A stretch of DNA of 64,000 bases, taken from contig NC_043013.1 of NCBI RefSeq assembly GCF_006345805.1, forward strand, positions 10,912,001 through 10,976,000. The letters run 5' to 3'. Position 1 is the stretch's first letter, and the number at the start of each line of letters is the position of its first letter. The position numbers were made by a program, and so were the translations under genes. The notes beneath the pieces were generated by a model, which saw only the letters and a program-made list of their open reading frames with translations, was not told the DNA's origin and ran no database searches. This document shows, piece after piece, positions 825-59,796 of the stretch. The DNA comes from Octopus sinensis (Eukaryota).

Positions 825-1215
825 ATATTGTTATATTTCGGAATGGTCATTTTGCCAGTTTAGCCAATAAAAACACACGCACTATATATTTGGTGTTATT
901 TTGCTTCAGTGTTATTTATTTTTTACATTAATCTTAATCTTATTTCAGCCAGAGTTCTTTCGTCACACTCCTAACCGTCAGCCATTTTGTATTTCAAAAT
1001 GGCTGACGGTTAGTAAGGAGAAACACAAATAAGTAAGAAGAAAACAAAGGACCACTGATGCGGTCACAGGAGTGTGACGAAAGAACTCTGGCCGAAATAA
1101 GATTAAGTTTAATGTAAAAAATAAATAACAATGAAGCAAAATAACACCAAATATATAGTGCGTGTGTTTTTATTGGCTAAAATGGCAATATGACCATTCC
1201 GAAATAAAACAATAT
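825..1215. mobile_element. Foldback element between (TA)n tracts carrying a hammerhead-like motif (probable Penelope-like terminal-repeat derivative)
   Basis: Arms ~825-972 and ~1068-1215 are near-perfect reverse complements. There is an inner perfect 19-bp hairpin at 971-1013 and (TA)n at ~738-770 and ~1212-1244. Confidence 0.75.
1050..1093 (+). ncRNA. Minimal hammerhead ribozyme-like motif (variant core)
   Basis: GACCA-CTGATGCG-GTCACA(GGAG)TGTGAC-GAAA-GAAC-TC-TGGCC: stem I, CUGAUG core with A9 replaced by C, 6-bp stem II, GAAA, vestigial stem III, UH site. Confidence 0.6.
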
Positions 1216-1242
1216 ATATATATATATATATATATATATATA

Positions 1243-1448
1243 TAGGTGGTCCAAAAGTACGGTTACAGTTATTCAACTATATCTTTTGCATTCATATATT
1301 ATGAGCTTGGATCTTAATTATAAAAAATGTGAAACCCTTATTCAATGCTAATTTAGTTAATTTTGTCAAGCTCCCTTTTCAGTTTGTAAGACGGAAATTT
1401 AAACGTAATAAAATGTGCCTACGTAAACCTATTTTGGGGCATCCCTCT
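1243..1448. mobile_element. Degenerate Tc1/mariner-type MITE
   Basis: Imperfect TIRs ggtggtccaaaagtacggttac / gtaaacctattttggggcatcc, with TA-rich flanks. Confidence 0.45.
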
Positions 1449-1480
1449 ATATATTTATAATCAACTATAAATTATACTGT

Positions 1481-1892
1481 GGAGGTGCAATGGCCCAGTG
1501 GTTAGGGCAGCGGACTCGCGGTCGTAGGATCGAGGTCCCGACTCCCACACCGGGAATTGTGTGTGTTTATTGAACGAAAACACCTTAAACTCCACGAGAC
1601 CCGGGCAGGGGGTGGTGGTGAACCCTGCTGTACTCTTTCACACCTTTTTCTCGCTCTTTCTGTTGTACTTGTATTTAGAAAGAGCCAGCCTTGTCACAAG
1701 AGCTGCGACGTCACTAGTGCCAAGCAGTATAAGCCTCTGCTTTTCTCTTGGATAACATCGGTGACGTGTAGAGGGGAGGTTGGTATGCGTGGGCGACTGC
1801 TGGTCTTCTATAAACAACATTTCCCAGACATGTGCCTCGGAGGGTAACTTTCTAGGTGCAATCCCATGCTCCTTCATGACGGAAGGAGGTCA
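1481..1892 (+). mobile_element. tRNA-derived SINE (family C)
   Basis: tRNA-like head with A box TGGCCCAGTGG and a decayed B box. Looser tRNA-like heads occur at ~24455 and ~49540. Confidence 0.65.
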
Positions 1893-1932
1893 CAATATAA
1901 ATTATTTTGCAAACAACATATAAACTCATTAA

Positions 1933-2325
1933 GGCGGCGAGCTGGCAGAAACGTTAGCACGCCGGCCGAAATGCGTAGCCGTATTTCGTCTGCCGCTACG
2001 TTCTGAGTTCAAATTCCGCCGAGGTCGACTTTGATTTCATCCTTTTGGGGTCGATAAATTAAGTACCAGTTACGCACTAAGGTCGATGTAATCGACTTAA
2101 TCTGTTTGTCCTTGTTTGTCCCCTCTGTGTTTAGCCCCTTGTGGGTAGTAAAGAAATAGGTATTTCGTCTGCCGTTACGTTCTGAGTTCAAATTCCGCTG
2201 AGGTCGATTTTGCCTTTCATCCTTTCGGGATCAATAGATTAAGTACCAGTTGCGTACTGGGGTTGATATAATCGACTGGCCCCTCCCCCAAAATTTGGAG
2301 TCTTGTGCCTAGTGTAGAAAAGAAT
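1933..2325 (+). mobile_element. tRNA-derived SINE family B (Meta-domain-like core), dimeric
   Basis: Head GGCGGCGAGCTGGCAGAA, B box GAGTTCAAATTCC, and the core TTTCATCCTTTCGGGGTCGATAAATTAAGTACCAG present twice. Many paralogs in the window. Confidence 0.9.
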
Positions 2326-56045: not shown

Positions 56046-56071
56046 AATAATAATAATAATAATAATAATAA

Positions 56072-56608
56072 TTCTTATATTAGCCTCTAAGTCTCACATT
56101 AAACAACATTAAATGACATGCAACAACGTAAAATACAAAAACAGGACGATACAATGGGTTTTTACAGCGTGTAATCAATTTTTATAACAGTAACAAATTA
56201 AACAAATTAAAACTCCCAGTAGGGGAAGCGATTTAAGGTCCTTGTGGAAAACCCCACAAAAGCCACAAGTGCCTGATCAATAGGGCAAGATCTCTTCTTT
56301 TATTTCTCAGAGATGTGGGCTCAGATTTGGTCCTTTCACATTGACCATTCTTCCAACATTCACGCACCTTTCAACAAACTTGCTACAAGGCAACACTTCC
56401 CCCTACACCCTCAACTTCCTTTCCAAGTGAAACTTGGAAATGTTGATGAGGGGTTGGCCAAAGAGGAAAGTATCTGTCTTTAGCCCTTTCAAGACCATAC
56501 TACTTCTTTTGCTACAGCAACTAGACAAATAAAAATTGCCTGCCCCTCTCGGTCAAAAGAGGGCGGTGGAACAATCCTCACAATGGATTCAGCTGATAGC
56601 CAGATCCG
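56072..56608 (-). mobile_element. 3' fragment of a second Tx1-like LINE
   Basis: RIWLSAESIVRIVPPPSFDREGQAIFICLVAVAKEVVW aligns with RVGLSAESIVNIVTPPSFKREGRAIFIILVAMAKECIW of the 16-kb element. The 3' UTR differs and runs into (TTA)n. Confidence 0.85.
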
Positions 56609-56711
56609 TGGGTTTATGTTGAATACTACTACTACTACTACTACTACTACTACTACTACTAATAATAATAATAATAATAATAATAATAATAATAATAATA
56701 ATATAATAATA

Positions 56712-57030
56712 ATAGAGAAACTTTCAAAATACAAAGATCTCGAAACAGAGGTAACGCAATTGTGGAGTCTAAAACAGAAACAATTCCTATCATAAGTTCA
56801 TTGGTTATGATAAAAAAATATTCAGAAAAATACATAACAAAAACACCAGGTCTAACAAGTATATATAACATACAGAAAATACCACTACTAGGCATCTCTC
56901 CCATCCTACATAAAACACTTTTAATACATTAAGATTATGATCACCGCATAAAAAAAAAACACAGCACATACCCATGGCATACAGAGCTGCGCTCCGTAGT
57001 GCAGTGAAAGCACGCGGTGAAAATAAGTGT
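56712..57030 (+). mobile_element. 3' end of an R4/Dong-type retrotransposon following (TAA)n
   Basis: EKLSKYKDLETEVTQLWSLK, then frameshifted ETIPII...KYITKTPGLTSIYNIQKIPLLG, the RLE C-terminus. Confidence 0.8.
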
Positions 57031-58231
57031 AATGAATAATAAAATTTTGGCCTCTTAACAAGAAAAACGGGAATGAATAAAATGGCTTTCAACATATTTT
57101 CGCTTGGTCTGTAAAATCAACTACATAGAAAACATGTAAGTCATATTTCTTTCGGACATGTTATAAATTTAGATCCCAGACGGGCATTACTATTAAAGCT
57201 TTTTTTTTTCAAACAGAATCTTTGCATACGCAATAAATGTTAAAGCAAGAGAAAATATATTTTAAAGAAAAAGCTTTGAAAACAATTTAACGTAAATAAT
57301 GTTTTTAAAAATTGACACTAGGTGCCATTTGGAAATATTTTCCCCATAATCAAGCTAAAGATATTGCTCTCATTTCTATTGTCCAAGAAGAAATTGTTAA
57401 CATTGGAAGACAAACTTGCTTCAGTGTGATTGACAATACGTCAGATATTTGTGATTCACTTTAAAGACATCAGAATCATTAACCGTGGGTTTTGTTAATT
57501 TGAATCAACAATAATTTTGTTAATTTGAATTTGCATATGAAGAAGAGAACAATTAAGACAAGGAACATAAACCACAAATAAGGGAAATTTCAGCATAAGA
57601 ATTATTATACGATGTTTCGAAATTAGAAATATTCAAGAAATTAATAATAAATATCGATTCTAATATTTCACGAAACAGAAAAAAAGCGGGACGCTGGTTT
57701 TCTCTGCTGCAAGCAAGTTGCATGAAAAGAAGAGGAAAACAAAAAGATGATTTAAGTATTTTAAGGGAAATAAATTCATCAAAGATCTGTTTTCGTTTAT
57801 GTTTGCGTCAATTAAACATATTGCATTTCCAATAATTTGTTAAGTAGTAAACGTACGTAAAACAGTGTTTTATTTTGTCAAGATGATAATAGTTTGTCAA
57901 AATGATGCGTGGCATGATTTCCAGCTTCATGTTCTAAGTTTAAATACAGCAGAGGTCGATTTTGCCCTTCATACTTTCGTGGTCGATGAGGTAAGTGTAG
58001 CACTAGAATAGATGTTGTTGACTAGCTACCGCCCACCAAATCCCTTGTCTTGCGCCAATAGTAGAAATTATTACTATTATATTATTATTATTATTATTAT
58101 TATTGTTGTTGTGTTGTTGTTGTTGTTGTTGTTGTTGTTGCTATTATTATTATTATTATTAACATTATTATTATTAATATTATTATTATTATTATTATAT
58201 TATTATTATTATTATTATTATTTTTATTATT

Positions 58232-58736
58232 GAGTGAGAGAGCAGTGCATGCCATCAAAGTGACACTGGGGTAAAATATACGAAGCCCAGTATGCCCATC
58301 ATGACTCCTCGTCTGATAAGGGTACACCAGGCACATGCATCACAACCATATGTGCGTGACATGCTGATCTCATATCAAGATAAACAGCCCATGACCTTGC
58401 AGGTGGGGCCCAGTTAGAATTTTCTTCTGGTCGGGTAACCCATCCCGCTCAAAAGGTCCCTGAATAAGGGTTGTTTAAGTATGTTGAACAAAACACCCAT
58501 GTTTCCAAACCTCTAACAAACGGCTATGATGCTCCCCACTATTTTTGCTCGTGGTCAGAGATGCACATATCGTCAGTCACTAAGGGACATGGTCAACTGG
58601 TTAAGGTCGAACAACTGACAAGCAAATCTGTGGTATTGAGCAGAATATTTGCTTTCGCCCATCTTTTATACCAAGACAAAACAATGTACATAATGACACT
58701 TCCAATCAGTTAAGATCGCAAGCCATGAAAGCCACT
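58232..58736 (-). mobile_element. Repeat family D inside (TAA)n
   Basis: Longest copy, with (TTA)n on both sides. Confidence 0.85.
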
Positions 58737-59796
58737 ATCATTATTATTATTATTATTATTGAACAACATACTTCGCGGCATTTCTTCCTGCTTTACGTTC
58801 TGAGTCCAAATACCGCAGAGGCCAATTTTGATTTTCATTCATTCGGAGCAGATAAAATAAGTATCAGTTTAGAACAGGGGTCGACGTAATTGTAATGTCA
58901 TGTTCCTATTGTGGAAAAAATTGCTATTATCCTTTGAAATGCCATTAAAATATCTATTCAAATTTGGGAAGGACAATTTTGAACCGATTATAGAATTTTT
59001 CATATTAATATGTTGATTTATCTCTGTAGGTGGACAGATAGATTCCTTGATAAAAATGCAAGGATACATAAATGCAGATATATATGTATACGTGTGGGTG
59101 CATGTGTGCCGGAATAATTATGGATAGATCATTAAGAAAGATAGTAGATAGGAAAGCATCCTGTATAAACAAGACGGTTGGCACACGTAGGATTGTAGCA
59201 ATAGAGGAAAAGTTGGCAAGCCAAAAAGCATTGTTAGGTTCTAGTGAAAGAAAAGAAAGACAGCTATACGTTTTCAAATTTAAATAAAAACTTGGTCTTT
59301 ACAGTTTAAGACTTATCTAAAGAAAGAGAAAATAAATAATGCCTACAAACAATGGATCTCATTGTTAAATATTACCAAGTTTTTCTTATGAATGAATACA
59401 TCAATATACAAAAGAAATGCGTTGTTCTGCCAAGAATGAAAAAAATTGGCAACAAAAATATGTTGTTTAACAGAAGTTACGTTTTATATTGCAAATTAAC
59501 TAATTAAATATATATATGTATATTTCTCACACCATTAGCCAGATAACTTTCTACAGTCCGAGGTAGGCTAGCAAGCTGAAACTTCGAAGTCATTGCCACT
59601 TCTATTCTTGTAAGTCTATAATAAATATGTTCTCTACAAACAGCATTAAGTAGCCCTTCTGCTTAATGTTAAATAATTTCTATTATAACAAGATATAGAA
59701 ACTGACAGTAATACACACGCACGCGCACACTCACACATATGTATATGTAGATCCACCGCGAAGAGAATTTGTGTGTGAGTTGGGGGGGGGGGGAGT

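Follow-up and report, generated by a model that had tools for sequence, protein, structure and literature searches.

Hammerhead motifs beside TA tracts in Octopus sinensis: probable tails of Penelope-like elements, mostly with non-canonical cores

The window analysed here is a stretch of 64,000 nucleotides of the Octopus sinensis genome (contig NC_043013.1, positions 10,912,001 to 10,976,000, or G000:C17:10912001-10976000 in the 2.72 Gb that were searched), in which an initial annotation had listed 11 minimal hammerhead ribozyme motifs, all of which do sit at the coordinates it gave. Seven of the listed elements are probably 3' ends, cut short on the 5' side, that belong to three high-copy families (A, B and C) of Penelope-like elements (PLEs) which encode a reverse transcriptase (RT) and a GIY-YIG endonuclease (EN) and end in (TA)n, and the hammerheads are likely to act in the parent elements as slow, dimer-dependent cutters, family C probably included despite the U at position 6 of its core. 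The PLE identity is supported by family membership, by the open reading frame (ORF) upstream, by 3' ends that abut TA at fixed distances, by tandem and inverted arrangements and by optional tails. PLE hammerheads, TA targeting, tails, inverted copies and the PLE origin of animal retrozymes are already known; what was not expected is that the canonical CUGANGA core is absent from most copies.

Parent elements of the window motifs

Eight of the 11 sites are confirmed as members of repeat families, and seven of these are 3' ends of the three ORF-bearing families; the eighth, at 59558, belongs to an older family, H, while 38853, 6708 and 8443 have no other copy. In families A, B and C, long copies hold an RT, a cysteine linker and a GIY-YIG domain upstream of the same hammerhead, and because of this linkage the window elements appear to be 5'-truncated PLEs and not retrozymes. 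The extension to RT and GIY-YIG ORFs that the initial annotation had proposed thus succeeded for A, B and C, and its remark that the window itself contains no PLE ORF agrees with a tblastn search with four PLE proteins, which gave 0 matches. Its picture of a diverse, high-copy population of PLE origin stands, with several families at high copy number, except for the words “non-autonomous or retrozyme-like”. The description of the elements as otherwise unrelated does not apply to the sites at 35319, 35801, 36286 and 53367, which represent two subfamilies of family C, or to the related family B.

The DNA search for family A (query 825-1212) returned 1,085 candidates, and coding sequence (RT-EN) lies upstream in five (L159, L161, L167, L171 and L172) of the eight loci inspected out of 15. 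The coding part is found at L159:1505-3847(-) and also in L210 (protein P0003). Family A has two alternative 3' ends, the optional tail lying inside the pseudo-long terminal repeat (pseudo-LTR). L210 contains a tandem unit of 3.9 kb whose reading frame starts within this tail, about 100 nt past the hammerhead, so that the tail is the start of the next ORF; the tail and internal priming described for an anole PLE (PMC11167929) match this arrangement. Like Nematis-type EN+ PLEs, family A has a C-terminal GIY-YIG EN, a short linker (12 residues from CxxC to GIY) and a cysteine just ahead of GIY; in place of DKG it has DKS. The RT, in contrast, has 125 residues between motifs 3 and 4 (123-129 in 94 of the 95 relatives in which the distance could be measured), compared with 53-56 in Neptune-type elements, and the nematode rows of PMC8557442 Fig. 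S1 are without the insertion. Because of this insertion of about 70 residues, family A is by its sequence described as Nematis-like only and is not filed under Nematis. The main PLE survey places insertions between RT motifs 3 and 4 only in N-terminal-EN and some EN-less clades (PMC8557442). The RT lineage of family A is widespread, with 160 relatives at E below 1e-20, one of them named from a sea cucumber, and the insertion of about 70 residues is constant in it; in 15 of 120 relatives a short linker ahead of a C-terminal GIY-YIG was measurable.

Searches with 40900-41105 (family B) and with the unit 35495-35925 (family C) returned 2,244 and 3,053 candidates. The family B ORF was reached by tracking the CA-rich upstream sequence of the family to L203 and L204, where the ORF is followed by about 2 kb of CA-rich untranslated region (UTR) and then by the hammerhead. 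A family C hammerhead lies downstream in 24 of 30 loci found through the RT-EN DNA of that family, with A6 in none, and a tandem pair of family C 2.3 kb apart encloses a broken frame with the RT thumb, the cysteine linker and GIY-YIG. The B and C proteins share 63-64% amino-acid identity, and the outer stem I pair of the hammerhead is G-C in B and C-G in C. Most copies are broken; the DKG motif was found in L154 (C) and L203 (B), and the Pfam matches are weak (RVT_1, E 2e-6 for P0005, just below the curated cut-off; GIY-YIG, E 0.004). Compared by eye with PMC8557442 Fig. S2, the linker is of the CX2-5CxxC kind, with a spacer of 29 residues before the C-terminal GIY-YIG. The hammerhead lies near the 3' end in both families, the pseudo-LTR copies are tandem or inverted, and the target is microsatellite DNA.

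Families B, C and D are assigned provisionally to the Neptune type by motifs and linker length, not by a tree with reference elements. With Neptune-type EN+ PLEs (Arkhipova 2006, via PMC8557442) they have in common DKG, the RT, CxxxxCxxC, a spacer of about 29 residues and GIY-YIG at the C terminus, as well as a microsatellite target and tandem and inverted copies (PMC8557442); the 3' UTRs of B and C, which are CA-rich and up to 1-2 kb long, are a difference. Family D lies outside the window and was found nested beside a family B copy (L091-L120; 804-residue open frame at L121:2104-4515(+)); it appears to be a young Neptune-type PLE with a U3-A8 hammerhead whose stem II has 2 bp, with TA ends and a tail that is optional, and a first look for its endonuclease gave 19,446 candidates. 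The Hydra clade, suggested by the TA target, was rejected on protein motifs (DKG or DKS, CxxxxCxxC): as described in PMC8557442 it shares the C-terminal EN, the hammerhead and (TA)n insertion with the present families, but has DKT and a CxCX5C linker, without CCHH, which they do not fit. The Naiad clade (N-terminal EN, no canonical hammerhead) was also rejected, the EN being C-terminal in A, B, C and D.

Eight of the 11 sites lie no more than 141 nt from a (TA)6+ tract, compared with 27% of random positions within 150 nt. Measured from the hammerhead, the first (TA)3 falls 60-125 nt downstream in 73 of 102 copies of family C and 75 of 88 of family B, compared with 12% of random positions, and the distances are family-specific; this hammerhead-anchored count replaced two 3'-end patterns that proved unspecific (TA-adjacent in 11/74 and 15/24). 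For family A, TA directly adjoins 14 of 17 and 18 of 20 ends, the background being 4%. Both the TA adjacency and the TA targeting claimed initially are thus upheld, the latter for families A, B and C, and inverted structures are indeed present at 770-1211 and 40900-41359. The families are often inserted in one another's TA tracts. A TA or microsatellite bias has been published for Neptune, Naiad and Hydra (PMC8557442).

A mechanism can be proposed by analogy with PMC11167929 and PMC8557442. The GIY-YIG domain would nick TA-rich DNA, reverse transcription would start some 90-180 nt beyond the hammerhead, at one or two sites inside the RNA, insertion would most likely proceed by target-primed reverse transcription at the TA-rich nicks, and early stops and strand switches would give short and inverted copies. 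We further suppose that the two hammerheads of a tandem transcript may pair through their palindrome and cut slowly, perhaps with the help of a protein; dimers of tandem transcripts have been put forward as slow cutters for PLE hammerheads (PMC4209133; review PMC6765202). Three observations count against this picture: hammerhead cleavage was dispensable for insertion in vitro in the anole PLE (PMC11167929), the double-hammerhead fold was never the minimum-energy form in a simple energy test, and in L177, one of 30 long B loci, a different endonuclease lies upstream. L177, in which a D-like RT fragment is followed by an A-like endonuclease and joined to the family B 3' UTR, is taken to be a chimera, at 1/30 loci. 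When monomers were folded, 41280 was the only site with a z-score out of the ordinary. As for the copies in the window, these are inert relics in the genome.

Core variants and the U6 motif of family C

The motifs have the GAAA, the G10.1-C11.1 pair, stem II, a palindromic stem III, the NUH triplet and stem I (38853 and one family B subfamily being the stem I exceptions), a shape which supports the earlier reading of them as helix-III-less, dimer-type hammerheads. The PLE hammerheads of metazoan pseudo-LTRs (Cervera and de la Pena 2014, PMC4209133) have the same U-rich lead-in and short stem I, the same extra base between positions 9 and 10.1, the same G10.1-C11.1 pair, ACGU palindrome for helix III and GUU, GUA or GUC triplets, and likewise occur as thousands of mostly solo copies and as inverted pairs; their U3-A8 covariant is also present here, in family D. 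The cores, however, depart from the published consensus by one base: the rows compared from the alignment of PMC4209133 all carry U4, A6 and A9, whereas the majority here is U6 in C, C4 in B and C9 in A. The CTGANGA core that the initial annotation ascribed to the elements in common occurs only at 38853, 41280(-) and 6738(-); the core is CTGATGC at 1055, CTGTCGA at 35319, 35801 and 36286, CCGACGA at 40971, CCGAGGT at 59558 and CTGATAA at 8443, and the 53367 site is without the 5' half of the hammerhead. The cores are mostly non-canonical, as a family trait rather than through the decay of single copies, a point missed in the initial annotation.

Among the first 100 B and C matches in genome order, the 53 C copies all have U6 (with T in 26, A in 14, C in 9 and G in 4 at N7), and the 47 B copies comprise 29 with C4 and 18 with U4, so that the canonical core is present in 18/47 B copies and 0/53 C copies. 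Genome-wide, one family C pattern occurs with U6 in 13,361 copies and with a different base in 465, of which about one fifth are A in the matches listed; given that a control at position 4 has another base in 245 copies, A6 in family C is near the background mutation level. The first 100 of the 2,373 family A matches have C9 in 94, A9 in 5 and T9 in 1, with the canonical core in 5/100. The majority of A, B and C cores are neither CUGANGA nor its U3-A8 variant, while canonical cores are found in the U4 subfamily of B and the A9 subfamily of A, and the U3-A8 variant in family D.

The U4 copies of family B share flank differences, the C4 group being a mixture, and U4 appears, on small samples, to mark a real subfamily; the minus-strand copy at 41164..41359 fits two of three U4-diagnostic columns, one of which is position 4 itself. 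CpG decay as the source of its canonical core at 41280 was rejected, since U4 occurs in 18/47 rows while the adjacent CpG has decayed in 1/47. In family A divergence is similar in A9 copies (4.5%) and in C9 copies (4.0%), and A9 also seems to mark a real subfamily, the samples again being small; the A9C change looks more like relaxed catalysis. A further family B subfamily (L220, L221, L268, L271, L273, L275) has a GUC triplet and a shifted stem I partner, which make the usual 4-bp stem I impossible.

When 101 copies of family C were clustered on the downstream flank only, groups of 44 and 45 were obtained, with 12 copies in smaller groups, and the two main groups differ at 33% of flank columns. 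If substitutions alone are counted, 38 of 119 columns in the flank separate the two groups but only 1 of 36 in the hammerhead, which is N7 (P = 1.4e-4); finer clustering cuts give 2/36 hammerhead columns and P up to 5e-4. A natural C copy was also compared with the contigs of four sequencing runs (four organism labels, three studies), one of which may be the source sample, contig depth not being a measure of copy number. In these runs N7 shows all three other letters (4-41% each), H17 changes from A to U in 6-25%, CpG decay is seen, no variant is found at position 6 at a 3% threshold, and contig depth peaks on the motif.

These patterns suggest that family C stayed under hammerhead-shaped selection after the fixation of A6U. 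Retained weak cleavage is favoured because variation concentrates at the chemically free positions (N7, H17), and we place it at roughly even chances against a non-cutting role or decay. More broadly, and only tentatively, we propose that the largest of these octopus PLE families runs on a natural A6U hammerhead which is under ribozyme-type selection across diverged subfamilies and related species, as either a working non-canonical core, perhaps rescued by the dimer, by metal choice or by the protein of the element, or a fold with a second, non-cutting job. Several points detract from the argument for catalysis: the outer stem I pair of C is broken in 1-9% of depth; loop II hardly varies either, which may make some of the conservation non-catalytic; the C flanks are T-rich and may mutate faster, which would inflate the contrast between flank and hammerhead; many copies were retrieved with hammerhead-containing queries, which biases the sample to intact ones; and A6 changes reduce activity in published tests (A6C in PMC3088659 and PMC7151607). 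The nearest natural relatives are U4C in a viroid and A6C in phage Bcep176, single core substitutions with low but real activity, of which U4C matches family B (PMC3088659, PMC7151607); U4C is tolerated in the viroid (PMC3088659), and A6C variants are slow with Mg2+ and active with Mn2+ (PMC7151607). Those are isolated cases, whereas A6U is here fixed in over 13,000 copies and across subfamilies. A literature search by title and the start of the abstract, which did not take in repeat libraries, found neither a natural A6U hammerhead nor these families.

It is also possible, though we incline against it, that the PLE 3'-end identity is as proposed but that the U6 fold no longer cuts and has been kept in the pseudo-LTR to bind protein, to pair with RNA or to serve as a promoter element. 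Such a role would accommodate the strongly harmful effect of A6 substitutions with Mg2+ (PMC3088659, PMC7151607), insertion in vitro that did not need cleavage (PMC11167929), the conservation of loop II, and monomer folding in which U4-G5-U6 pairs with the stem III palindrome; it sits poorly with the fact that, CpG decay apart, the most variable positions between C lineages are N7 and H17, which are those left free by hammerhead chemistry. Less likely still, and an unlikely account of the families as a whole, is that the hammerheads are dead relics which drift in master elements, the families spreading without them. Three of the four young families examined do carry different uncompensated core changes, C9 exceeds A9 by 94 to 5 in the first 100 rows of family A, and Naiad PLEs thrive without canonical hammerheads (PMC8557442), but in C the flanks differ far more from one subfamily to another than the motif does, and contig depth peaks on the motif; for family A drift remains plausible.

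Short copies, individual sites and other features of the window

The short copies might be dedicated non-autonomous elements or retrozymes which spread as small RNAs or circles, comparable to the non-LTR retrozymes (bioRxiv 10.64898/2026.07.22.740005; PMC7229834), which are likewise short, non-coding and PLE-related and carry a type I hammerhead; animal retrozymes are considered to be of PLE origin (bioRxiv 10.64898/2026.07.22.740005). We judge this improbable. About 20 of the 30 best B copies start at the same ATATG point, short copies appear more numerous than ORF-bearing ones, and the window holds one tandem array, but the 5' ends are staggered in that 9/30 copies go beyond this point to differing extents, the long ones as far as the ORF are known, and the common point is TA-like, may be microhomology with the target and was selected for in the query. 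Retrozymes, moreover, as defined in bioRxiv 10.64898/2026.07.22.740005, form tandem arrays with a complete hammerhead per unit and no ORF, whereas dispersed truncations of ORF-bearing elements are found here. The triple at 35319, 35801 and 36286, the sole array, is a local 482-bp triplication, bounded by TA tracts, with broken hammerheads and about 200 bp of unique DNA (unit bases 1-203), which match no other locus among the 40 scored.

Family H (query 59520-59710) gave 282 candidates at 73-79% identity, of which 15 copies were aligned; no PLE ORF could be tied to it in these 15 loci, the sole ORF match lying on the opposite strand. Its copies often have a short inverted hammerhead copy directly upstream, which gives a hairpin (L252-L265).

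The window by itself is weak evidence for the motifs, and the genome-wide copies settle the question. A strict descriptor that includes stem I finds one window site (41280) and 0 in 20 shuffles, one that allows a single core mismatch finds 3 sites compared with a shuffle mean of 0.15-0.6, and the canonical core without stem I is found at 2 sites (38853, 41280) and 0 times in 300 shuffles; a hammerhead family is absent among the Rfam matches listed for the window (150 of 341). Genome-wide there are 27,183 (B and C) and 2,373 (A) exact matches, and 0 in reversed-pattern controls, so the motif frequency exceeds that of its control. That the motifs are chance matches within AT-rich repeat DNA is very improbable, for although three sites (38853, 6708, 8443) have no family and loose descriptors yield up to 0.6 matches per shuffled window, these exact matches, at a PLE-typical position, refute it for A, B, C and H and leave it tenable only for 8443, 6708 and perhaps 38853. 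At these three sites the genome DNA searches, which skip common words and may miss old families, matched the window only. The motif at 38853 is probably an old relic, and is unlikely to be due to chance because no shuffle in 300 gave such a motif; 6708 and 8443 are unconfirmed as hammerheads, and 8443 fails both the strict and the one-mismatch descriptor. Two extra CTGANGA motifs with partial stems, at 27792 (+) and 59913 (-), had no convincing copies in 759 kb of loci.

Coordinates of hammerhead-related features in the window
Position	Strand	Feature	Remarks
738..769	.	(TA)16 tract	At tailed end of family A insertion
770..971	-	Family A 3' end, inverted	Truncated inside stem II; optional tail about 55 nt; 98% match to L159, a long copy
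991..1211	+	Family A 3' end without tail	(TA)16 comes next, at 1212-1243; 97% to L159
1055..1088	+	Family A hammerhead	CUGAUGC core (A9C) with an added G; stem II of 6 bp, very small stem III; cut predicted after UC
6712..6738	-	Hammerhead-like motif, unconfirmed	Matched itself only
8443..8461	+	Weak motif, not supported	Matched itself only; fails descriptors
34966..36450	+	Local 482-bp tandem triplication	Unit made up of a TA tract, some 200 bp of unique DNA and a family C 3' end; 3.1 copies at 99%
35319..35346	+	Decayed family C hammerhead 1	U6 core; stem II mismatch, palindrome broken; element 35227-35436
35801..35828	+	Decayed family C hammerhead 2	Element 35711-35918
36286..36313	+	Decayed family C hammerhead 3	Element 36193-36403
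38853..38878	+	Canonical-core motif without stem I	Single copy in genome
40900..41109	+	Family B 3' end, C4 subfamily	90% match to L204, which is ORF-linked
40971..40997	+	Family B hammerhead, C4 subfamily	Core CCGACGA plus A; predicted cut after GUU
41110..41163	.	(TA)27 tract	Shared by a tail-to-tail pair of copies of family B
41164..41359	-	Family B 3' end, likely U4 (canonical) subfamily	Hammerhead spans 41280 to 41254; 85% to + copy
53366..53478	+	Family C 3' end, other subfamily	Truncated inside stem II; 92% to ORF-linked L154; (TA)19 at 53479
59558..59591	+	Decayed family H hammerhead	8-nt palindromic stem III; element to about 59705

The window is rich in microsatellites. It also contains a 5S rRNA copy at 2928-3046(-) (93.9 bits), partial look-alikes of the adjacent stretch recurring elsewhere in the window, and further local tandem duplications at 10413-10910 (period 240) and 30468-30732 (period 107). 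A very abundant repeat like a short interspersed element (SINE), which we take to resemble octopus SINEs, occurs often as tandem units of about 184 bp (41869-42289, 38088-38325, 17995-18232, 20411-20648, 63778-64000 and others).

Implications for PLE hammerheads

The basic finding of PLE tails with hammerheads in TA tracts is an ordinary one. PLE hammerheads are described as universal in C-terminal-EN clades, weak in vitro and dispensable in one reconstituted system (PMC8557442, PMC4209133, PMC11167929). With regard to their role, the octopus genome supplies natural pairs with identifiable parent ORFs: family A has canonical and C9 cores and family B has U4 and C4, while U6 is fixed in family C and family D has U3-A8. 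If the A6U reading of family C is true, then tens of thousands of such motifs would escape a standard scan for CUGANGA, and similar variants may be concealed in some of the PLE clades that have been called hammerhead-free.

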